The notes below the pieces were generated by a model. The model had not been told where the DNA came from. It made no database searches and saw nothing but the letters and a program-made list of their open reading frames with translations. 64,000 bases of DNA from Escherichia coli O127:H6 str. E2348/69 (lineage in GTDB: Bacteria > Pseudomonadota > Gammaproteobacteria > Enterobacterales > Enterobacteriaceae). Of the stretch, positions 1-49,976 are shown piece after piece. Every line of letters begins with the position of its first letter. Within the stretch, counting starts at the first letter, position 1. The translations under genes and the position numbers were made by a program. The stretch lies in the NCBI RefSeq assembly GCF_000026545.1, contig NC_011601.1. One strand, given 5' to 3'.

Positions 1-13
1 AGGGAACAATCTC

Positions 14-901
14 ATGAAAACTGAACGAAAAAACGAGCATTACCTGGCGCTACAACAGGCGTTTGACGCGCCATGGCCTGGGCCTGTAGGAGAGTTAGTG
101 ATGCTGGAAAAAGGCAATATTCACCTGCAGATTTATCCGCATGATGGTGCCAGGATAACCTCGTTAAAGGCATTTGGTTCTGAAGTATTACGCCAATGGC
201 AGCCGCAGCGCAGAGCTTTTCAGTATAGCTGTTTCCCAATGGTGCCGTGGGCAGGGCGACTGGGGAATGCGACGCTGAATGCTGGTGGGCAATGTTATTC
301 TTTACCCGCCAATAAACCACCACATGCGTTGCATGGTATGGCTTGTTACTCAACGTGGGAAATCATCGACAAAACAGCAGATTCCCTGACTTTACGTATG
401 CCCCTGGCTTCACCGTGGCCCTGGCAAGGGGAAGTGATTCAGACTTTTTTGCTGGAGAACGATGCGCTGGTTTTGCAACTGGAAGTCCATTCATATGCCG
501 ATACATTCCCGGCCTCCGCAGGCTGGCATCCGTGGTTTGCGAAAAAGCTGACTCCGCAAAATACAGAATCGTTGCAGGTGCTTTTTGATGCGGACTGGCA
601 AGAAGAAGCGGGTAGTGATGAACTGCCAACTGGAAATCGTATCTCTCCTCAAGTTGGTCCCTGGGATGACTGTTTTGGTTTTTATGACGGGGTGAAGGTT
701 AAGTTACTGTGGCCTGGTAAACTCGCGATGACCATGACCTCTTCTGCAAACAGTCTGGTGGTATTTGATAAACAGCCCGATGCCACCTGTATTAACCCAC
801 TGACTCAGGCACCTAACGCAATAAATCTAACGCCGGAATTTGTGACACCAGATAAGCCGCTGGTCATCGAAACTCGTTGGCAATTTACACCTGAATCTTA
901 A
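14..901 (+). CDS. aldose 1-epimerase family protein (YihR-like)
   Basis: 295-aa ORF; motifs resembling the aldose-1-epimerase fold (FPMVPWAGRL, HALHGMACYSTWEI, AGWHPWF); AGGGA SD-like sequence just upstream of ATG at 14. Confidence 0.6.
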   Translation: MKTERKNEHYLALQQAFDAPWPGPVGELVMLEKGNIHLQIYPHDGARITSLKAFGSEVLRQWQPQRRAFQYSCFPMVPWAGRLGNATLNAGGQCYSLPANKPPHALHGMACYSTWEIIDKTADSLTLRMPLASPWPWQGEVIQTFLLENDALVLQLEVHSYADTFPASAGWHPWFAKKLTPQNTESLQVLFDADWQEEAGSDELPTGNRISPQVGPWDDCFGFYDGVKVKLLWPGKLAMTMTSSANSLVVFDKQPDATCINPLTQAPNAINLTPEFVTPDKPLVIETRWQFTPES

Positions 902-1041
902 CCATTCATCTATTGCGAAAAAGCCAGTGAAATTACTCTGCTTTTTCGCAATCAGCATCACAAGATTACCCTTATTGCCACATAGCCAAACCCATCCTTT
1001 CCCGCTACAGTTAATTTCTTGTGGCGCGAAAGGAGGCAAAA

Positions 1042-1641
1042 ATGCTCTATATCTTTGATTTAGGTAATGTGATTGTCGATATCGACTTTAACCGTGTGCT
1101 GGGGGCCTGGAGCGATTTAACGCGTGTTCCACTGGCTACGCTTAAGAAGAGTTTCCACATGGGCGAGGCGTTTCATCAGCATGAGCGTGGGGAAATTAGC
1201 GACGAAGCGTTCGCAGAGGCACTGTGTCATGAGATGGCCCTGCCGCTAAGCTATGAGCAGTTCTCCCACGGTTGGCAGGCGGTATTTGTTGCGCTACGAC
1301 CGGAAGTGATCGCCATCATGCATAAACTGCGTGAGCAGGGGCATCGCGTGGTGGTGCTTTCCAATACTAACCGCCTGCATACTACCTTCTGGCCGGAGGA
1401 ATACCCGGAAATCCGTGATGCTGCTGACCATATCTATCTGTCGCAAGACTTGGGTATGCGCAAACCTGAAGCACGAATTTATCAGCATGTTTTGCAGGCA
1501 GAAGGTTTTTCACCAGACGATACGGTCTTTTTCGACGATAACGCCGATAATATAGAAGGAGCTAATCGGCTAGGCATTACTAGTATTCTGGTGAAAGATA
1601 AAACCACCATCCCGGACTATTTCGCGAAGGTGTTATGCTAA
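1042..1641 (+). CDS. yihX: alpha-D-glucose-1-phosphate phosphatase, HAD family
   Basis: 199 aa from ATG 1042, preceded by AGGAGG at 1031-1036; N-terminus [10 protein letters not shown](I)VDID is the HAD motif I; the track ORF begins at an upstream GTG. Confidence 0.9.
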
Positions 1642-2507
1642 AAACCATTCAGGACAAAGCCAAGCATCGTACCCGTCCACTATGGGCCTGGCTAAAACTA
1701 CTCTGGCAACGCATTGATGAGGACAACATGACAACCCTGGCAGGTAACCTTGCCTATGTGTCGTTGCTCTCATTAGTGCCGCTGGTTGCCGTTGTTTTTG
1801 CGCTTTTCGCCGCTTTTCCCATGTTTTCCGACGTCAGCATTCAGTTGCGTCACTTTATTTTTGCCAACTTTCTGCCTGCTACTGGCGATGTTATCCAGCG
1901 ATATATCGAACAGTTTGTCGCCAATTCCAACAAAATGACCGCCGTCGGGGCGTGCGGGCTGATCGTCACGGCGTTATTGTTGATGTACTCCATCGATAGC
2001 GCGTTGAATACCATCTGGCGCAGTAAACGAGCGCGACCCAAAATTTACTCGTTTGCCGTGTACTGGATGATTTTAACGCTGGGGCCGCTGTTGGCAGGGG
2101 CCAGTCTGGCGATCAGCTCCTATCTGCTCTCTCTGCGCTGGGCGAGCGATCTCAATACTGTCATCGATAATGTGTTGCGTATTTTTCCGCTGCTGTTGTC
2201 GTGGATCTCTTTCTGGCTGCTGTACAGCATCGTTCCTACCATCCGTGTACCTAACCGCGACGCGATTGTCGGCGCGTTTGTCGCCGCGCTCCTGTTCGAA
2301 GCAGGAAAGAAAGGTTTCGCGCTTTATATCACCATGTTCCCATCATATCAGCTCATTTACGGTGTGCTGGCGGTGATCCCCATTCTCTTTGTTTGGGTCT
2401 ACTGGACATGGTGTATCGTCTTGCTTGGCGCGGAAATTACTGTCACTCTCGGGGAATACCGCAAATTAAAACAAGCTGCTGAACAAGAAGAAGACGACGA
2501 ACCATGA
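1635..2507 (+). CDS. yihY: YihY/virulence factor BrkB family inner membrane protein
   Basis: 290 aa, multiple hydrophobic segments; overlaps the yihX stop; matches K-12 gene order and size. Confidence 0.9.
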
Positions 2508-2941
2508 TTGCATTAATTCAACGCGTAACCCGTGCCAGCGTCACCGTGGAGGGAGAAGTGACGGGTGAAATTGGCGCGGGACTTTTGGTGTTATTGGGTG
2601 TCGAAAAGGATGACGACGAACAGAAAGCAAACCGTCTGTGCGAGCGTGTGCTCGGCTACCGCATCTTTAGCGATGCCGAAGGCAAGATGAATCTCAACGT
2701 GCAACAGGCGGGCGGCAGTGTACTGGTGGTTTCCCAGTTTACCCTTGCCGCAGATACCGAACGGGGGATGCGCCCAAGTTTCTCCAAAGGCGCATCACCG
2801 GATCGCGCAGAGGCGTTATATGACTATTTCGTCGAACGCTGCCGTCAGCAAGAGATGAACACGCAAACAGGACGCTTCGCTGCGGATATGCAGGTATCGC
2901 TGGTCAATGATGGCCCCGTGACATTCTGGTTGCAGGTATGA
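2504..2941 (+). CDS. dtd: D-aminoacyl-tRNA deacylase
   Basis: 145 aa, N-terminus MIALIQRV; 4-bp overlap with yihY. Confidence 0.93.
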
Positions 2942-3927
2942 GCCAGCTTCCAGGGTTGTCACGGGAAACAAGAGAGAGTATCGCTATGTATCACCTTCGG
3001 GTTCCACAAACAGAAGAAGAATTAGAGCGTTACTATCAGTTTCGCTGGGAAATGTTGCGTAAGCCCCTGCATCAACCAAAAGGTTCGGAACGCGACGCGT
3101 GGGATGCGATGGCGCATCACCAGATGGTCGTCGACGAGCAGGGTAATCTGGTAGCGGTAGGCCGACTGTATATTAATGCCGACAATGAAGCGTCCATTCG
3201 CTTTATGGCCGTTCATCCCGACGTGCAGGACAAAGGGTTAGGCACGCTGATGGCGATGACCCTGGAGTCGGTGGCACGTCAGGAAGGCGTTAAGCGCGTG
3301 ACCTGTAGCGCCCGTGAAGACGCGGTGGAGTTTTTCGCCAAGCTGGGGTTTGTTAATCAGGGAGAAATCACCACGCCAACCACCACGCCGATTCGCCATT
3401 TTTTGATGATTAAACCCGTCGCCACTCTGGATGATATTCTTCATCGCGGCGACTGGTGCGCCCAGCTCCAGCAAGCGTGGTATGAACATATCCCGTTAAG
3501 CGAAAAAATGGGTGTGCGCATTCAGCAATATACCGGGCAAAAATTTATCACCACCATGCCGGAAACCGGCAATCAGAATCCGCATCACACGCTGTTTGCC
3601 GGGAGTTTATTCTCGCTGGCTACGCTCACCGGTTGGGGGCTTATCTGGCTGATGCTGCGCGAACGCCACCTCGGCGGAACGATTATTCTGGCGGATGCGC
3701 ATATCCGCTATAGCAAACCGATTAGCGGTAAACCCCATGCGGTAGCCGACCTTGGTGCCTTAAGTGGCGATCTCGACCGTCTGGCGCGCGGACGAAAAGC
3801 GCGGGTACAAATGCAGGTCGAAATCTTTGGCGACGAGACGCCGGGTGCAGTGTTTGAAGGCACGTATATCGTTCTGCCCGCGAAGCCATTTGGCCCGTAT
3901 GAAGAGGGCGGGAACGAAGAAGAGTAG
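2938..3927 (+). CDS. yiiD: bifunctional GNAT acetyltransferase/thioesterase-domain protein
   Basis: 329 aa; size and position after dtd as in K-12. Confidence 0.88.
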
Positions 3928-3944
3928 GGGCGTTTTACTTGACT

Positions 3945-3973
3945 GAAAAGGTTTTCAATCTGAAAACCTTTTC
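3945..3973 (+). terminator. perfect 12-bp stem hairpin (GAAAAGGTTTTC-loop-GAAAACCTTTTC) after yiiD
   Basis: inverted repeat read directly; lies between yiiD (+) and the convergent esterase gene (-). Confidence 0.6.
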
Positions 3974-3990
3974 TGGGCCCTGGTCCGGAG

Positions 3991-4941
3991 TTACCTTCCC
4001 GCTCTCCAGGCAACATCCCGTAGCGCCGATCGCGCAGCCTCACTGATACCACCTAACTGAAAAAATCCGTGGATAACGCCAAGGTAGCGTTGGCAGGTGC
4101 ATTGCACTCCTTGCCCTGTCATGCGGTGATACAACGCTTCACCTTCATCGCAAAGTGGGTCGTATTCAGCGGTAATGATATGTACAGGTGGCAATCCATT
4201 GAAATCATTGCGCCAAATAGGGCTGGCTTCAGGATGCCTGCGTTCAATGCCTGGCAGGTACATCTCAAAGCCGCTCAGTAAAGTGTCGCGTGTGATGATG
4301 TAATCGTGACCATTGCGTATGTAGCTTTCGAAATGCGCAGTCGCATCAAGCATAGGATAAATTAAGATGAGTTGTGCTGGTTGCCACTCGCCAGCACGCT
4401 TCAATCGCAAAGCAGTTACCTGCGCCAGATGCCCTCCCGCACTGTCACCGGCAAGAGTTATTCGTTGTTTATCAACGCCGAGTCGTTCGGCGTGTTGCCG
4501 GACTAATTCTGCACCTCGTTGTGCATCATCATGGGCGGCGGGGAAAGTATGTTCCGGTGCCAGCCGATACTGGACGGCAATAATCCGACATTGCCCGTAA
4601 TAGGCTAACTGGCGCAGCTGGTTGTCGTGAGTTGCGAACCCGCCGCTAACAAAACAGCCACCGTAGTAATAAATTATCGTCGGGAGTAATGTCGGGGCAT
4701 TCAGCGGTGACACTATTCGTAAGGTCATCCCTTCAAGTTCGATAGTCTGAATATCTACCCGCGTTTCTGTCTCACCCGCAAGGACAGCGCTGGCGATATA
4801 GCCCTCTCTGCGCTGCGTAATACTTTGTTGGCGCGATGAGGGGCGACCCGCAGCGATAAACTCTTCGACTAACTCTGCAATTCCTTTTTCCAGTGCCATA
4901 GTAGAACTCATTTTGCTGTATGAATGTACAGTTTTATACAC
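3991..4941 (-). CDS. alpha/beta-hydrolase fold esterase/lipase (Aes/HSL-family-like)
   Basis: GDSAGG nucleophile-elbow motif and YGGCF oxyanion-hole-like motif; true start uncertain (candidates at M1, M11, M15 of the track ORF); not expected at this position from K-12 order. Confidence 0.7.
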   Translation of the reverse strand: MYKTVHSYSKMSSTMALEKGIAELVEEFIAAGRPSSRQQSITQRREGYIASAVLAGETETRVDIQTIELEGMTLRIVSPLNAPTLLPTIIYYYGGCFVSGGFATHDNQLRQLAYYGQCRIIAVQYRLAPEHTFPAAHDDAQRGAELVRQHAERLGVDKQRITLAGDSAGGHLAQVTALRLKRAGEWQPAQLILIYPMLDATAHFESYIRNGHDYIITRDTLLSGFEMYLPGIERRHPEASPIWRNDFNGLPPVHIITAEYDPLCDEGEALYHRMTGQGVQCTCQRYLGVIHGFFQLGGISEAARSALRDVAWRAGR

Positions 4942-5073
4942 CCGTTTTTACTGGATGGATACAGGGAAATTCACGGGCGTGAAAAATCTGGAAAGCGCCT
5001 CGCAAATGTAAAGACAAACCCGGCAGAGACGTGGTTTTGCTGGAGCACTATCAGTAAGCTAGTGGTTTCAAGG

Positions 5074-5090
5074 GTACGTCAATGACGTAC
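5074..5090. promoter_or_regulatory. perfect palindrome GTACGTCA-A-TGACGTAC upstream of the toxin-antitoxin pair; putative antitoxin operator
   Basis: 8-bp inverted arms read directly, about 40 bp upstream of the higB-like ATG; a TATAAT hexamer also sits at 5121-5126. Confidence 0.4.
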
Positions 5091-5127
5091 AAAAAGGATT
5101 GTTACTCTAAGCCAATGGCGTATAATT

Positions 5128-5439
5128 ATGCTCTTCATCGAAACGGAAATTTTTACTGAAGATGTTCAAAAACTGCTGACCGACGATGAATTCAGTCGTT
5201 TTCAGTTTTTCCTGGCCTTGAATCCTGACTATGGTGAGGTAATACCTGAAACTGGTGGGTTAAGAAAGGTTCGATGGGTGTCAGGAGGAAAGGGGAAACG
5301 TGCTGGTGTCAGGGTTATTTACTTTCATCAGGTTAAACATTATGAGATCAGATTACTGCTTATTTATCGTAAGGGTATTAAAGATGATCTGTCTCCCCAG
5401 GAAAAAGCAATGCTCCGGTTGTTAAATACGAGGTGGTAA
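5128..5439 (+). CDS. RelE/HigB-superfamily toxin (type II TA)
   Basis: 103 aa, basic, toxin-first order, stop abuts the antitoxin ATG; sequence style typical of HigB-like addiction-module killers. Confidence 0.7.
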   Translation: MLFIETEIFTEDVQKLLTDDEFSRFQFFLALNPDYGEVIPETGGLRKVRWVSGGKGKRAGVRVIYFHQVKHYEIRLLLIYRKGIKDDLSPQEKAMLRLLNTRW

Positions 5440-5730
5440 ATGGATAAGGCACTTTTTGAGCGGTTGACTCACAGCATGGCCCAGATGAATGAAATTATTG
5501 AAGGAACGCGACAGCCTTCGCGGACTTTTGAAGTTGATGCTATGAAAATCAAAGAAATACGCCGCGCTTCAGGGTTGTCACAATCTAAATTTGCCGATCT
5601 TATTTCTGTAAGCGTAGACACGTTGCGTAACTGGGAGCAGGGGCGACGTTCACCGACCGGGCCTGCAAAGGCTTTGCTGCGAGCGATTGCCAATGATCCG
5701 CAACATGTGCTGCAAGCACTTAACCGTTAG
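5440..5730 (+). CDS. XRE-family HTH antitoxin (HigA-like)
   Basis: 96 aa; HTH signature SGLSQSKFADLISVSVDTLRNWEQGRR; ATG immediately after the toxin TAA with GAGGTGG SD inside the toxin 3' end. Confidence 0.7.
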   Translation: MDKALFERLTHSMAQMNEIIEGTRQPSRTFEVDAMKIKEIRRASGLSQSKFADLISVSVDTLRNWEQGRRSPTGPAKALLRAIANDPQHVLQALNR

Positions 5731-6198
5731 AGGCATGGTTATGCCATACAGAAAGCACCAGCATTCAGAACTCCTGTGAAAGCGGCGTAGTGCCACCTGC
5801 TCAGGAGTTTTGCTATGACCCGTAATCGTGCTGACCGTTGCCACCCTATGATGCGATTAAAAAAACTCATCGTCGCGCCGATGATTGACGTCAATGCTAT
5901 CGGATGATGTCAGGGGTGTTCCGGAAGGAATTCCTTGTTTCCCGAACTGTTACCAACAAAATTATAACGATGAGCAAGTTAAGACCGGTTGGTAGCAGTA
6001 CTGACCGGTCTGTGATGGATGATTAATTTCACCTTAAATCCGGGTGCTGTTAGGATGCTGACATTTTTCGGCTACACCATTCAGATTATGCAATTAAAGA
6101 TCCAATCAAAAAATAAACATCCCTGTATATAATATATTCATAGCACCTATAATTCATTTTGGGCGATAACTAAACCATTTTTGAGTAACAAATGAAAC

Positions 6199-6242
6199 AA
6201 CTGCAACGGACTTATTATTTCTGGAAAACGTCTCGCAAAAAC
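6199..6242. repeat. copy 1 of a ~45-bp motif (AACTGCAAC...TCTGGAAAACGYCTCGCRAAA) upstream of yiiE
   Basis: direct comparison with the second copy at 6647-6691, roughly 75 percent identical by eye. Confidence 0.5.
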
Positions 6243-6334
6243 AAAACAATATGAAAAAATCCGCTTTCGTTAATTAACTTTCCGGCGTAATTTTCGCACA
6301 TACATTAATGAGTAATATATGTAAGGTGGTGGTA

Positions 6335-6553
6335 ATGGCGATGAATACGGTTTTTCTTCATTTATCAGAAGAGGCAATTAAACGGCTGAACAAGCTTCGG
6401 GGATGGCGTAAGGTTTCGCGCTCTGCAATTTTACGCGAAGCGGTAGAGCAATATCTGGAGCGGCAGCAATTTCCGGTGCGTAAGGCAAAAGGCGGCAGGC
6501 AAAGGGACGAGGCAGTTGGTGTTGAAGAACTATGTAAGCAGCATAAGGAATGA
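6335..6553 (+). CDS. yiiE: ribbon-helix-helix (CopG/MetJ-like) small regulator
   Basis: 72 aa from MAMNTVFLHLSEEAIKRL; position between yiiD and fdhE; symbol could equally be the paralog yiiF. Confidence 0.6.
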   Translation: MAMNTVFLHLSEEAIKRLNKLRGWRKVSRSAILREAVEQYLERQQFPVRKAKGGRQRDEAVGVEELCKQHKE

Positions 6554-6646
6554 CAAAAAGATTTTTTCATTCTTGAATATAAAAACAAAAAACCAGATGA
6601 CCTTATTCTGGTATTAATACAAGGTTGTTTTACTTGAACTTATAAT

Positions 6647-6691
6647 AACTGCAACTGTTACATCATATCTGGAAAACGCCTCGCGAAATAC
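6647..6691. repeat. copy 2 of the ~45-bp motif, downstream of yiiE with no ORF following
   Basis: see copy 1; nothing of at least 60 aa lies between it and the fdhE stop. Confidence 0.5.
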
Positions 6692-6776
6692 GAGAGATTT
6701 TGCGGGAATAGCAGGTGTCGTCACACCCTATGAGCTGTAATCCGGGCGACCAGCGCCACCCGGAAAACGTCAGAGA

Positions 6777-7706
6777 TTACTCCCCTTCACCCGGAAACAG
6801 GAACGGGTTAATGGAACTACGGGCATAGCCTTCTTGCTCCATTCGCGCGTCCAGTACCAGAGAGGCGAGGTCATCTGCCACGGCTTCAACTTTCGGTTCT
6901 TTTTCCTGATAAAGAATCTTCAGGTAAGTGCCGCAGTCATCGCAGCTTTCGGCTTTAATCGCGGCCTGTTCGTCATCCAGCGACCAGTAATGCAGTTTGC
7001 CGCTCTGTTCACAGTTGCTGCATTTTACGCGCACTACGTGCCATTCAGTTTCACACAGGTTGCAGCGCAGGTAACGCAGACCCTGAGTGGTGCCAATTTG
7101 CACCATGCTGGACACCGGCATAGAGCCACATACCGGGCAATATTGACGTTGTTCGCCGTATTCAGCGCGGGCTTTGCCGGGGATCAGATTAGCCATCTGC
7201 GCCCAGTAGAGCGACAGCGCAGCCCAGATAAACGGCGCTTTATCGCTGCTGACGGACGAGAAATCAGAGGCAAACAGCGCGCTGGCCATATCTTCCAGCT
7301 CCTGAGTCGATGCCTTCTCCAGATTCTCAATCACTGCCAGCGCCGGGCCGCTCATTTCAGGTTTCAGCTCAGCAATTAGCGCCATCAGCAGCTTTTGCCA
7401 GTGCTTATCACGCGGCAGAACGTGAATATCCAGCGGGGGCTTGCCCTGTGCGCTGGCTTCTTTAATGCGCGCGGTCAGATCCATCTCCAGCGGATGGTCG
7501 TACAGCACCACTTCCTGGGCGTGGGCGATAAGCGCAGCAAAGCGCAGGTAATCACCCAGCGGATTATTTTCTGCCAGCTCGCGCAGACGCTCGGCGCGGC
7601 GGTTGTATAAATTCTTGAGCCGAGGGAACAATAACGGCGGAATCATATCCGCCGTACGTTTCTCGCTCGAACCCAGCTCATCTTGCGGGATTATGCGAAT
7701 ACTCAT
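6777..7706 (-). CDS. fdhE: formate dehydrogenase accessory protein FdhE
   Basis: 309 aa; CxxC pairs; K-12 order. Confidence 0.93.
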
Positions 7707-8338
7707 TCAGCTTTCTTTTCCGTTGTCTTGCGGACCTCACGGTACCAGCGCGGGTGATGTTTCTTTGCCCAGGCGCTGGTCACCCATCCTTCCACCATGG
7801 CGGTAATCGTGCCTTTCACCCAAAGGGCGGCGTAGATATGCACCATGATAACCACAATTAACGCCACTGCGGCAAATGAATGCAGCATTAACGCGAATCG
7901 GATCACCGGGATTGAGAAAGCAGGCGCAAAATAAGGACGCCAGATAATCACGCCGCTCACCAGCAGCAGAACCAGGAAAATAATCGCCGCCCAGAAAACG
8001 CATTTCTGACCGAAGTTATAACGCCCGGTGTCACCTACTTCCTCGTTGACGACGATCTTACGAATATTCTTCGCCCAAAAGATATCATCCCGATTGATTA
8101 GGTTGTGATGCCAGTAACGGAAAAACATGATGATGAACGAGGCAAACATAACCACGCCGACAAACGGGTGCAGAATGCGCGCCAGCTGCGGTGTGCCCAT
8201 GATTTGCATCAACCAGTTGAAGGACGGGAACAAAAAGCCCAGCCCGCTCACCGCCGCCAGGATGAAGCAGAAGGCGGTGATCCAGTGGTTGATACGTTCC
8301 GGCGCGGTGTAGCGCACGATGGTGTCACGTCGTTTCAT
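7703..8338 (-). CDS. fdoI: formate dehydrogenase-O cytochrome b556 subunit
   Basis: 211 aa, four hydrophobic helices, overlaps fdhE and fdoH. Confidence 0.93.
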
Positions 8339-9237
8339 TTGCGCTCCTCGTCTTTCTCTTCGTGCAGATTATTCTCTTCCTCATCCGCACGGTTCGGACC
8401 GACACCCACGTAGTGGAAGATACTGGCTGCGAAGGTAGCCGCAAAGCCAACAGCTGCGAGCGGTTTCCAGATGCCTTTCCAGAATTTCACGGTTTCGCTG
8501 ATTTCCGGGTTCTCCGGCAAGCCATGATACAGATTTGGCTTGTCAGCATGGTGCAGCACGTACATAACATGTGTACCACCGACGCCTGCCGGGTCGTACA
8601 AACCCGCATTGTCGTAACCACGGGTTTTCAGCTCCGCCACGCGCTCGCTCGCCAGCGTTTTCATCGACTCTTTCGTACCGAAGTGAATCGCGCCCGTTGG
8701 GCAGGTCTTCACGCAGGCCGGTTCTTGCCCAACCACCACGCGGTCAACGCACAGCGTACATTTGTAGACGCGGTTGTCTTCCGGGTTGAGGCGCGGAATG
8801 TCGAACGGACAGCCCGCAATGCAATAACCGCAGCCGATGCACTGCTCGGACTGGAAGTCGACGATACCGTTGGAATACTGAATAATTGCCCCTTCCGCCG
8901 GGCACGCTTTCAGGCAGCCTGGATCGGAACAGTGCATACAGCCGTCTTTGCGGATCAGCCATTCCAGTTTGTCGTTCTGCTCCACTTCCGAGAATCGCAT
9001 CACCGTCCACGATTTGGCACTTAAATCATTGGGGTTGTCGTACACCCCAATGTTATTGCCGACGGTATCGCGAATGTCGTTCCACTCTGAACACGCCACC
9101 TGACAGGCTTTACAGCCGATACAGGTGGTAACGTCGATGAGTTTCGCCACTTCTTCCTGGAAGTCCCGCGCCTGAGGCGCGGGGGTCAGACCGTTAGTCG
9201 CGGAACGACGAATGATATCTTGCGATTGATAAGCCAT
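8335..9237 (-). CDS. fdoH: formate dehydrogenase-O iron-sulfur subunit
   Basis: 300 aa, multiple CxxCxxCxxxCP ferredoxin motifs, C-terminal TM helix. Confidence 0.93.
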
Positions 9238-9249
9238 ATGTCGTCTCCG

Positions 9250-12200
9250 TTACACCTTTTCCACATTCACAAGGAAGGACTTAAACTCCGGCGTCTGCGT
9301 GTTCGCATCACCGACGAATGGCGTCAACGTATTGGCAATAAAGCCTTTTTTCGCAACACCTTCATAGCCCCAGTGAATCGGAATACCGATGGTATCGATA
9401 TCTTTGCCGTTTGCTTTCAGCGTGCGAATACGTTTGGTCACTACCGCTTTGGCTTTGATATAGCCACGGTTGGAGGAGACTTTCACAGTATCGCCCTGGG
9501 CAATGCCAAGTTTATTCGCCAGCGACTCCCCGATTTCCACAAACTGCTCTGGTTGCAAAATCGCATTCAACAGCGCGTGTTTGGTCCAGTAGTGGAAGTG
9601 CTCGGTCAGACGATAGGTGGTTCCGACATACGGGAACTTATCGGCTTTACCCAATGCTTCGGCGTCGTCTTTAAAGATACGCGCAGCCGGGTTCGAGATA
9701 ACGTTTGGATGCAGCGGGTTAGTTCCCAGCGGCGTTTCAAACGGCTCGTAGTGTTCCGGGAACGGACCTTCCGCCATCTTATCGAGGGCAAACAGACGTC
9801 CCATGCCTTCCTGCTGCATGATAAACGGCCCTACGCCGCTGCCCGGAGGCGCTGCGCTGTAGTCCGGAATATCCCAGCCGGTCCACTTAGTGCCGTCCCA
9901 TTTCAGCAACTGACGCTTCGGATCCCATGGGTTACCCTGCGGATCTGCGGAGGCGCGGTTATACAGAATGCGGCGGTTTAGCGGCCATGCCCATGCCCAG
10001 CCCAGCGTGTTACCGAGGCCAGACGGATCGGCGTTATCACGACGCGCCATCTGGTTGCCTTCCGGCGTCCAGCTACCGGCGAAAATCCAGCAGCCACAGG
10101 AGGTTGTACCGTCATCGCGCAGTTGGGCGAACGAGCTAAGTTGTTGGCCTTTCTTGACGATAACCGCACCGGTTGCCGGGTCGGTAATATCGGCCAGCGC
10201 TTTGCCGTTGCTCTCCATTGCCACTTCTTCTGAAGATGGCTCATGCGGAATGGCGTAGTTCCAGGTCATGTTCAGCACCTGGTCCGGGTTCGCGCCACCC
10301 TGTTCGGCATACATCTTGCGCAAGCGCAGGAAGATACCGGAGAGGATCTCGCCATCAGTCAGCGCAATCCCCGGGGCGTCCGCACCTTTCCAGTGCCACT
10401 GTAACCAGCGACCTGAGTTAACGATAGAACCGTTCTCTTCCGCGAAGCAGGTCGATGGTAGACGGAACACTTCGGTCTGGATCTTCGACGAGTCAACTTC
10501 GTTCAGCTCACCGTGGTTCTGCCAGAAGTTAGAGGTTTCAGTGTTCAGCGGGTCGATAGTCACGAGGAATTTCAGCTTCGACAGACAGCCGATCACTTTG
10601 TTTTTGTTCGGGAATGAGGCAACAGGGTTAAAGCCCTGGCAGATATAGCCATTGACCTTGCCTTCTTTCATCATCTCGAAGTATTGCAGGACGTCGTAGC
10701 CTTTATCCCACTTCGGCAACCAGTCAAAGCCCCAGCTATTTTCCGCCGTCGCTTTATCACCAAAGAAGGCCTTCATCATAGAGACGAAGAATTTCGGGTA
10801 GTTGCCCCAGTAGTTTACCTGGCCTTCCAGCAGCGGTTTTGGCGTGTTGGCGGTAAGGTAGGTTTGCAGATCGGTCTGCTTCTCGCTTGGCAGCGTCATG
10901 TAACCTGGCAGGCTCTGCGACAGCAGCCCCAGGTCGGTCAGCCCCTGAATATTGGAGTGACCGCGCAGGGCGTTAACGCCGCCGCCAGCCATCCCCATAT
11001 TGCCGAGCAGCAACTGGATCATCGCCATCGTACGGATGTTCTGCGCACCGATGGAGTGTTGCGTCCAGCCGAGCGCGTAAAGGAACGAGGCAGTTTTATC
11101 GTGAGCACTGGTTTCGGCGATGTATTCGCAGACTTTCAGGAATGCGTCTTTTGGCGTACCACAGATGTTTTCAACCACATCTGGCGTGTAGCGGGAAACG
11201 TGCTGTTTCAGCAAGTTCCACACGCAACGTGGATGTTGCAGGGTAGTATCGCGTTTGGCGAAGCCGTTTTCGTCCAGTTCGTAAGTCCAGGTGGACTTAT
11301 CGTACTTGCGTTTTTCCGCGTCGTAGCCGGTGAACAGGCCATCTTCAAAGCCGTAATCCTCACGCACGATCAGGCTAGCGTTGGTATAGGCTTCGGTGTA
11401 TTCGCGGTTGAATTTTTCATTGTTCAGCAGGTACAGCAATACGCCTGACAGGAAAGCAATGTCAGTACCGGAACGGATAGGGGCATAGTAGTCAGCCACC
11501 GCCGCTGTACGTGTAAAGCGAGGATCGATCACAATCAGCTTCGCGCCGTTGTGAATTTTGGCTTCCATCGCCCAGCGGAACCCGACCGGGTGAGCTTCAG
11601 CGGCGTTACCGCCCATCACCACGACGAGGTTGGCATTCTTGATGTCGACCCAGTGGTTGGTCATCGCACCGCGACCAAATGTTGGAGCAAGACTTGCTAC
11701 CGTTGGTCCGTGTCAGACACGCGCCTGGTTGTCGACCGCGAGCATACCCAGCGCGCGGGAGAATTTTTGCGTTAAATAGCCGGTTTCGTTACTCGACGCG
11801 GAAGCACACAGCATCCCGGTGGAGAGCCAGCGGTTAACAGTCACGCCTTCGGCGTTTTGCGCAATGTAGTTCGCATCGCGGTCTTCTTTCATCAGTTTGG
11901 CGATGCGATCAAACGCCTCTTCCCAACTGATTTGCTGCCATTTATCAGAACCTGGCGCACGGTATTCCGGAAACTTCAGGCGGCTTTCGGAGTGGATGAA
12001 ATCCACCAGGCCAGCGCCTTTCGGACAAAGTGCTCCGCGGTTGACCGGGTGATCCGGGTCACCTTCGATATGGAAGATAGATGCTTTGGCGTTTTTTGCT
12101 CCGTCACCGAGGCTGTACATCAACAGCCCACAGCCTACGGAACAATAGGTGCAGGTATTACGGGTTTCGCGGGTGCGCAGCAGTTTATACTGCCGGGTTT

Positions 12201-49921: not shown

Positions 49922-49976
49922 TTACACTTCATCTTTCGCGTAATTTCTTTACTGTGTAGGCCAACAGGTAACGCAG

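Follow-up and report, generated by a model that had tools for sequence, protein, structure and literature searches.

The HigB-2/HigA-2 pair of Vibrio cholerae is a toxin–antitoxin cassette of the chromosome II superintegron. The toxin gene comes first in this pair, which is represented by PDB entries 5JA8, 5JA9, and 5JAA. Mutagenesis identified Arg51, Arg64, Tyr82, and Lys84 as the catalytic residues of the toxin, VcHigB2 (PMC5416850), and the footprinted higBA2 operator reads TGTACGC-N5-GCGTACA (PMC11006873). In Salmonella enterica, the pair sehCD (STM4032.2N-STM4033 / SL3979-SL3980) shares the fabY–fdhE interval with the esterase gene STM4032, and sehCD proved functional when toxicity and neutralisation were assayed (PMC4366850). 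The publication that introduced these names (PMC3868539) has been retracted and serves here only as their source. We analyzed a window of 64,000 nucleotides (the whole stretch of DNA considered here) from Escherichia coli O127:H6 str. E2348/69, in which an esterase gene and a toxin–antitoxin pair lie between fabY (yiiD) and yiiE. The features of the locus are as follows.

3927: 3' end of fabY (yiiD)
3945–3973: perfect hairpin (13-nt arms, 3-nt loop, 100% complementary) between the convergent fabY and esterase genes
3991–4899, minus strand: esterase gene, hormone-sensitive-lipase (Abhydrolase_3) family, 302 aa from the RefSeq start; a longer ORF reaches 4941
4916–4931: LexA-box-like palindrome CTGTATGAATGTACAG, 16 nt 5' of the esterase ATG
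4987–5006, plus strand: first copy of a 20-nt motif, TCTGGAAAGCGCCTCGCAAA, at the left edge of the toxin–antitoxin cassette
5074–5090: operator-like inverted repeat O1, GTACGTCA-a-TGACGTAC
5108–5123: operator-like repeat O2, TAAGCCAATGGCGTAT, overlapping a promoter-like TTGTTA-16-TATAAT (5099–5126)
5128–5439, plus strand: HigB-2-type toxin gene (RelE fold), 103 aa, stop codon at 5437–5439
5440–5730, plus strand: HigA-2/NadS-type antitoxin gene, 96 aa, C-terminal HTH-XRE domain
5705–5809, plus strand: stretch of ~105 bp with the 3' end of the antitoxin gene and a terminator-like hairpin (5766–5812)
6220–6239, plus strand: second copy of the 20-nt motif, 95 nt (115 bp start to start) 5' of the yiiE start
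6335–6553, plus strand: yiiE, ribbon-helix-helix protein
6618–6740, plus strand: vapC 3' remnant, 40 codons plus stop
6668–6687: third copy of the 20-nt motif, inside the vapC remnant

The toxin was compared with the V. cholerae protein using phmmer, which aligned its residues 2–99 with the PDB HigB-2 chains (5JA8/5JA9) over the full length and without gaps (E 1.5e-19 to 1.5e-18). R49, R62, Y80, and K82 of the toxin correspond to the catalytic Arg/Arg/Tyr/Lys of VcHigB2 and were kept in all 12 of the 12 aligned orthologues. The Pfam RelE model matched weakly (E 0.006), and no NCBIfam or PADLOC model named the toxin. The antitoxin matched PDB HigA-2 over residues 31–89 (E 2e-8) and Pfam HTH_3 over residues 37–74 (E 3e-9), consistent with the C-terminal HTH-XRE domain of the V. 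cholerae antitoxin; it differed in residues 1–30, which had no detectable sequence similarity to HigA-2. RefSeq names this gene nadS, the score against the NCBIfam NadS model NF041265 was marginal (60.7 bits; cut-off, 60), and a literature search on the meaning of "NadS" returned nothing relevant. A preliminary description of this DNA, made from the sequence alone, had reported a Hig-like toxin–antitoxin pair on the plus strand, and the PDB, Pfam, and NCBIfam matches assign that pair specifically to the HigB-2/HigA-2 type. Among the PADLOC anti-phage defence models, none matched the toxin or the esterase, and the antitoxin was recognised only as a generic helix-turn-helix protein; the functions in abortive infection or in stabilising neighbouring DNA that the preliminary description suggested are hypothetical.

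The arrangement of the pair also resembles that in V. cholerae. The toxin gene comes first, and the antitoxin ATG at 5440 directly abuts the toxin stop codon. O1 has GTACG half-sites with a spacing of 7 nt, identical to the V. cholerae higBA2 operator, although two operator-like repeats are present in E. coli versus one footprinted site in V. cholerae. Both candidate operators were conserved in 13 species and may serve autoregulation of the pair; the Salmonella variant is TATACGCCATTGACGTATA. Taken together by homology, the pair would form a toxin-first type II operon of the HigB-2/HigA-2 kind, orthologous to Salmonella sehCD, in which the toxin would act as a RelE-fold, ribosome-dependent mRNA endonuclease and the antitoxin would neutralise it via its N-terminal segment. 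The antitoxin gene is preceded by a strong Shine–Dalgarno sequence (GAGGTGG) and the toxin gene by none, which would favour an excess of antitoxin. The best promoter-like site (5099–5126) fits simple expression of the toxin poorly, because its TATAAT ends 1 nt short of the toxin ATG.

The minus-strand gene had been described as an alpha/beta-hydrolase esterase, and this was confirmed by a match to Pfam PF07859 (Abhydrolase_3; E 3.3e-68), by matches to PDB esterases (E about 5e-51), and by an intact triad of Ser153 (in GDSAG, from residue 151), Asp247 (DPLCDE), and His277 (HGF). The fold family, GDSAG, and the triad Asp and His are shared with hormone-sensitive-lipase-family esterases such as E. 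coli Aes, Est2, and PDB 2YH2. It differs from them in the oxyanion-hole motif HGG(G), in place of which YGG is found at residues 79–81, with the glycines kept and the histidine replaced; in scoring below the cut-offs of all NCBIfam models of the family (best, LipP1, 238 versus 350 bits); and in the LexA box upstream. The gene would encode a cytoplasmic hormone-sensitive-lipase-family esterase whose Ser-Asp-His triad is intact. The hairpin at 3945–3973, between this gene and fabY, is probably a bidirectional terminator. Amino-acid identities to the Salmonella proteins were 71% for the toxin, 85% for the antitoxin, and 75% for the esterase, and position between fabY and fdhE, gene order, and orientation were also alike. 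Salmonella (fabY-higAB-esterase-higB2-HTH-fdhE) differs in having fabY and the esterase gene separated by an extra Hig-type pair, sehAB, and in lacking yiiE and yiiF.

The extent of the segment was determined by sequence comparison with K-12. Homology breaks off at 3927 and restarts at 5938; absence from K-12, previously claimed for 3928–6300, therefore holds for 3928–5937 (2010 bp) and not for the remainder. The expectation that yiiE closely follows yiiD in K-12 was incorrect, since 852 bp separate the two genes there, including 474 bp of different DNA. An AT-rich stretch (GC down to 0.35–0.40 across ~5850–6450) had been counted as part of the variable segment, but it has a ~90% identical counterpart in K-12 and, on this alignment, is the own upstream region of yiiE, common to both strains. 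The fabY-yiiE locus is variable in E. coli, with at least four alleles. K-12 carries the initial 474 bp of another two-gene module, followed by sequence that, in a composite allele, is reached only after another 4.3 kb. K-12 is a deletion derivative, and this module fragment is its scar. In O157-type alleles, the antitoxin gene has left a diverged 3' end, and composite alleles carry a second, diverged copy of the 5705–5809 stretch upstream of the esterase gene. Family searches gave no match for either ORF of the alternative module or for two small ORFs from other strains, and no Rfam family was found across 3800–6850 at E up to 1.

Among 5426 complete E. coli genomes, the esterase gene and pair were present in 2599 (~48%), the K-12-type scar in 1996, and the alternative two-gene module in 1062; the segment was single-copy and chromosomal in this species. 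The preliminary description was therefore right that the segment is accessory within E. coli and not core: it is missing in K-12 and in about half of the genomes. This distribution, the presence of at least four alleles, and the GC content of the toxin gene (0.41, below that of its neighbours) would speak for a recently acquired, strain-specific islet that horizontal transfer had placed between two core genes, as had been proposed. However, no integrase or transposase ORF was found at the locus and no tRNA or tmRNA attachment site within 1–12000, and the suggested check for target-site duplications at the borders yielded only 12-nt matches within coding sequence, at chance level. Alleles without the segment bear deletion scars. 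Low GC is common for toxin–antitoxin genes and also occurs in the orthologues. Apparent "plasmid" matches proved to be mislabelled chromosome pieces with yihU to fdhD, and a plasmid origin was rejected. In contrast to the V. cholerae pair, the E. coli pair occupies a fixed chromosomal slot and has no integron features.

We surveyed 63 Enterobacteriaceae species with a complete fabY-fdhE interval. The esterase gene was found at the same place and in the same orientation in 39 of them and a HigB-2-type (HigB2-NadS) pair in the same slot in 11; the interval is syntenic in Enterobacter, Klebsiella, and Citrobacter, and Salmonella, Citrobacter, Enterobacter, and further genera have the same genes in it. 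Pairwise nucleotide distances of all three genes followed those of fabY plus fdhE (Pearson correlation 0.79 for the esterase, 0.87 for the toxin, and 0.89 for the antitoxin). No near-identical copy was found in another genus, the closest being 24–28% divergent. The dN/dS values of about 0.07 (esterase), 0.075 (toxin), and 0.05 (antitoxin) indicate purifying selection, although they are rough owing to saturated synonymous sites and few pairs. Both other Escherichia species sampled lacked an intact esterase gene or pair, and one of them has an internally deleted esterase gene. Given the lack of mobility signs, the shared site across genera, and divergence that tracks fabY and fdhE, "insertion" has the wrong polarity; the islet explanation is largely refuted and now very improbable. 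Instead, 3928–5937 has very likely long belonged to the fabY-fdhE interval of Enterobacteriaceae and been inherited with the chromosome; about half of E. coli keeps it, and the K-12 lineage deleted it. Presence is patchy among genera, which may reflect vertical descent with repeated loss or allele exchange by homologous recombination via the conserved flanks; because of this patchiness, the two are not fully separable. Under the reading of an inherited segment, K-12 represents a degraded state, and E2348/69 is nearer to the ancestral one. The direct consequences are few: the genes are of known kinds and a locus that is variable yet ancient is an ordinary finding, but it corrects a K-12-centred reading.

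Whether the toxin still matters was considered next to these data. Some E. coli strains carry a toxin nonsense allele (DS566, Q26stop) beside an intact antitoxin gene, so the pair is dispensable. Together with the missing Shine–Dalgarno sequence of the toxin gene, the NCBI naming of the antitoxin after a regulator family (NadS), and the adjoining yiiE and yiiF, which seem to be such orphan antitoxins, these alleles would fit a decaying, non-functional remnant in which only the antitoxin matters, as a regulator. Yet the window encodes a full-length toxin that has kept all four catalytic residues, the toxin is under purifying selection across genera, and the Salmonella orthologue was toxic and neutralised (PMC4366850). 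We therefore regard a remnant as improbable and retain the reading of a toxin–antitoxin operon, with putative toxicity, neutralisation, and physiological role in E. coli.

The esterase promoter region contains the LexA-box-like palindrome at 4916–4931, adjoined by a conserved TATAAA (4933–4938, minus strand). It agrees with the consensus TACTGTATATATATACAGTA at 15 of 20 positions, and patterns of the CTGT-N8-ACAG type occur just twice in the 64-kb window. Of the 47 esterase loci compared from other species, 39 have a perfect CTGT-N8-ACAG at this position; in the remaining eight, the box ends in CCAG, a single mismatch. This conservation suggests that the esterase is under SOS control by LexA and probably induced by DNA damage. 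An indirect hint comes from Salmonella, in which the operon STM4030-STM4031, located 3' of the esterase gene on the same strand, is listed as responding to the mutagen MX (PMC2225428). If the box is confirmed, a conserved esterase would join the enterobacterial SOS regulon, a membership invisible to K-12 studies because the gene is missing there.

Esterase gene and HigB-2-type pair are adjacent and divergent and have a 228-bp control region in common in E. coli, Salmonella, and some Citrobacter and Enterobacter, an arrangement that could be taken to mean that all three work as a single unit and that the esterase belongs to the toxin–antitoxin system as its third component or its effector. The survey argues against this: the 39 esterase species comprise six with a HigB-2 pair, 21 with VapBC, and 12 with neither, and in five species the pair occurs where the esterase gene is missing. 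Control would also be separate, from a LexA-box promoter for the esterase and from its own candidate operators for the pair. A single unit is thus extremely improbable, and the esterase and the toxin–antitoxin pair would be independent units with a shared divergent control region.

The VapBC pairs of Klebsiella, Citrobacter, Enterobacter, Kluyvera, and others have the same limits as the pair described here, the left one just after the 20-nt motif and the right one at the fdhE stop codon; they differ in their unrelated PIN-domain toxin and antitoxin-first order. The slot is occupied alternately by HigB-2-type or VapBC-type pairs, and its left edge is marked by the 20-nt motif across genera. The motif (TCTGGAAAGCGGCTCGCAAA) was present in 52 of the 63 species, and the three copies in E. 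coli each stand ahead of a cassette. A cassette deletion in E. whittamii has its exact junction within the motif, and in Citrobacter the HigB-2-type and VapBC-type alleles diverge at it. Two identities of the motif were rejected. Its GG-N10-GC spacing fits a sigma-54 promoter, but a genome-wide sigma-54 ChIP study in K-12 lists no site at yiiD, yiiE, or yiiF; as a phage attachment site, it was sought in 2.9 million viral contigs and matched exactly in two, each time within an unrelated structural-gene region of a phage and attributable to chance. A broader proposal is that fabY-fdhE is a family-wide dedicated toxin–antitoxin slot, with the 20-nt element as a recombination target for the exchange or stacking of cassettes and the esterase as an unrecognised conserved SOS gene; we consider this unlikely.

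In E. coli, unlike the genera with VapBC in the slot, the VapBC modules are reduced to the antitoxin genes yiiE and yiiF and to 3' fragments of vapC. The remnant at 6618–6740 was 58% identical to residues 84–124 of Klebsiella VapC (tblastn, E 8e-12). K-12 has yiiF at the position of this remnant, and the gene is missing in E2348/69. A literature search on yiiE and yiiF found nothing useful. E. coli yiiF was 80% identical to a VapB-type antitoxin of C. freundii, and both yiiE and yiiF are probably orphan VapB-type antitoxins. These "regulators" would then be antitoxins remaining in a single chromosomal slot that holds alternative toxin–antitoxin families across genera.

The window was 100% identical to E. 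coli E2348/69, and RefSeq annotation, taken alongside the open reading frames (ORFs) called in the window, gave the following genes.

Genes from fabY to fdhE in the window (RefSeq)
2986-3927, fabY (yiiD)
3991-4899, minus strand, alpha/beta hydrolase (esterase)
5128-5439, "hypothetical protein" (toxin)
5440-5730, nadS (antitoxin)
6335-6553, yiiE
6777-7706, minus strand, fdhE

The preliminary description, which placed an inserted esterase and HigBA-like pair between yiiD and yiiE, was correct in the features it listed: the RefSeq genes, the ORFs and the GC dip (to 0.35-0.40 at about 5850-6450) were all found, and Pfam and PDB matches identified a hormone-sensitive-lipase (HSL) family esterase and a HigB-2/HigA-2-type pair. 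The genes are of known kinds with orthologues already studied; only a 20-nt motif and a LexA box deserve further work.

To assess variation at the locus, presence of the esterase-plus-pair module was defined as at least 80% coverage of 3980-5865 and scored in 5426 complete E. coli genomes. The module was present in 2599, single-copy and chromosomal in every case. Homology to K-12 breaks off at 3927 and restarts at 5938. The K-12 site is not empty: it holds 474 bp from the start of an alternative two-gene module, after which K-12 jumps to sequence 4.3 kb further on in the composite allele of strain DETEC-P666. The K-12-type junction occurs in 1996 genomes and the complete alternative module in 1062 of the 5426, O157:H7 included; searches of Pfam, NCBIfam, PADLOC and PHROGs with its proteins gave no match.

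Alternative module in fetched E. coli loci
L004 (O157-type strain M7638) 7120-8934, complete, 297 + 304 aa
L005 2034-3848, complete, 297 + 304 aa
L002 (K-12) 1729-2202, remnant, first 474 bp (pseudogene fragment in the annotation)

Where an allele has only the alternative module, the final 26 nt of the antitoxin gene and its terminator survive as a diverged copy; such alleles therefore descend from one that carried the pair. The module is truly accessory (2599/5426, K-12 lacking it), but the change ran towards loss in K-12 rather than gain here. No integrase or transposase ORF and no tRNA was found around the segment, and a search of its borders for the proposed target-site duplications found none. 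The AT-rich stretch at 6060-6300 is the upstream region of yiiE, about 90% identical in K-12, and lies outside the variable segment. In other strains, small ORFs of 73 and 92 aa (L005 5840-6391), for which family searches gave no match, lie between the antitoxin gene and yiiE; about 400 bp of this region is gone from the window, where a remnant of the second is all that survives (5871-5975).

The same genes were found between fabY and fdhE in Salmonella, Enterobacter, Klebsiella and Citrobacter, first in records filed as plasmids. These PLSDB records (CP125156.1, NZ_CP051374.1, NZ_CP077309.1, NZ_CP151862.1 and others; loci L007-L011) are chromosomes or chromosome fragments, all with core genes from yihU to fdhD and one of 5.37 Mb, so plasmid matches at this locus are misleading. 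The fabY neighbourhood was then fetched from 80 Enterobacteriaceae species, and 63 complete intervals were scored. The esterase was present in 39, in unchanged orientation and with 70-82% amino-acid identity; the slot held a HigB-2/NadS pair in 11 of the 63 and a VapB/VapC pair in 32, and both pairs were complete together in none of the 63. Nucleotide distances computed pairwise for the esterase, toxin and antitoxin genes correlated with the fabY plus fdhE distances (Pearson 0.79, 0.87 and 0.89, respectively), and the closest copy in another genus was 24-28% divergent. The dN/dS of the three genes was about 0.05-0.075, an estimate made rough by saturation at synonymous sites. Most simply read, the esterase and a toxin-antitoxin slot are old features of the fabY-fdhE interval, the E2348/69 arrangement being near ancestral and that of K-12 derived. 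Homologous recombination through the conserved flanks, exchanging alleles, probably contributes too and is confounded with vertical descent in these data.

Judged from its sequence, the 3991-4899 product is a clear member of the HSL family (Pfam Abhydrolase_3, E 3e-68; solved esterase structures, E about 5e-51), with catalytic motifs GDSAG (Ser153), DPLCDE (Asp247) and HGF (His277) and an oxyanion motif YGG where HGG is usual. It scored under the curated cut-off of each named NCBIfam subfamily. A LexA-box palindrome, CTGTATGAATGTACAG (4916-4931), lies 16 nt 5' of the esterase start and adjoins a conserved TATAAA, the two spanning 4916-4938. Both are kept in all 47 orthologous loci, where the box pattern is perfect in 39 and differs by one base in 8. 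The esterase probably represents an SOS gene so far overlooked, undetectable in K-12 work because K-12 lacks it. The sole other CTGT-N8-ACAG pattern in the window is CTGTGTAGGCCAACAG (49952-49967).

The 103-aa toxin aligned without gaps to the solved V. cholerae HigB-2 (E about 1e-18). Alanine substitutions showed that Arg51, Arg64, Tyr82 and Lys84 matter in VcHigB2 (PMC5416850); the equivalent R49, R62, Y80 and K82 are retained in the window toxin and 12 orthologues. The 96-aa antitoxin contains an HTH_3 domain, barely passes the NadS model (60.7 bits, cut-off 60) and also matches HigA-2. An operator-like inverted repeat, GTACGTCA-a-TGACGTAC, lies 5' of the toxin gene at 5074-5090 and shares GTACG half-sites and 7-nt spacing with TGTACGC-N5-GCGTACA, the operator footprinted in V. 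cholerae (PMC11006873); a related repeat follows at 5108-5123, and both are kept in 13 species. A Shine-Dalgarno sequence is absent at the toxin gene and present at the antitoxin gene (GAGGTGG). Of the promoter-like sites, TTGTTA-16-TATAAT (5099-5126) is the strongest. It is near consensus and kept across genera, and the second repeat overlaps it; because it ends 1 nt 5' of the toxin ATG, a transcript starting from it would miss the start codon of the toxin gene. In Salmonella the orthologous pair is sehCD, beside the esterase gene STM4032; the paper that named it has been retracted (PMC3868539), and an independent study scored it as a functional toxin-antitoxin pair (PMC4366850). In strain DS566 (L006 2929-3240) the toxin carries Gln26-to-stop beside an intact antitoxin, and the RefSeq annotation has a toxin pseudogene in at least three listed strains, so some lineages are losing the toxin.

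The slot's left edge bears the 20-nt motif TCTGGAAAGCGGCTCGCAAA in 52 of 63 species, regardless of which pair comes next and with or without the esterase. Base conservation was 0.92 within it and about 0.5 in either flank. In 35 of 42 species 54-55 nt separate it from the LexA box, although the intervening sequence varies. The window holds three copies (TCTGGAAARCGYCTCGCRAA; 4987-5006, 6220-6239 and 6668-6687), against 0.01 expected by chance. In Escherichia whittamii, which lacks the pair, the junction falls precisely within the motif, and in a comparison of two Citrobacter species whose pairs differ, homology breaks off at its end. The motif may regulate the esterase promoter from upstream or be a hot spot of recombination; sigma-54 promoter and phage attachment site readings were considered and found unsupported. 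In E. whittamii (L012 8956-10030), a Salmonella sehAB-like Hig pair adjoins fabY, the HigB-2 pair is absent and the esterase is internally deleted with its LexA box kept.

K-12 YiiF is 80% identical to a VapB-type antitoxin of C. freundii. A 40-codon vapC 3' remnant lies 3' of yiiE in the window (6618-6740), and another vapC remnant lies 3' of yiiF in K-12; on this evidence both yiiE and yiiF resemble orphan antitoxins left by decayed VapBC pairs. Present in K-12 and many strains, yiiF is missing from the window, with about 600 bp of K-12 DNA gone at 6688-6714; the junction directly follows the third motif copy, and E. whittamii is arranged likewise. In some strains an IS110-family IS621 has inserted between yiiF and fdhE, within this variable interval (L094 4044-5024, strain 2010C_3902).
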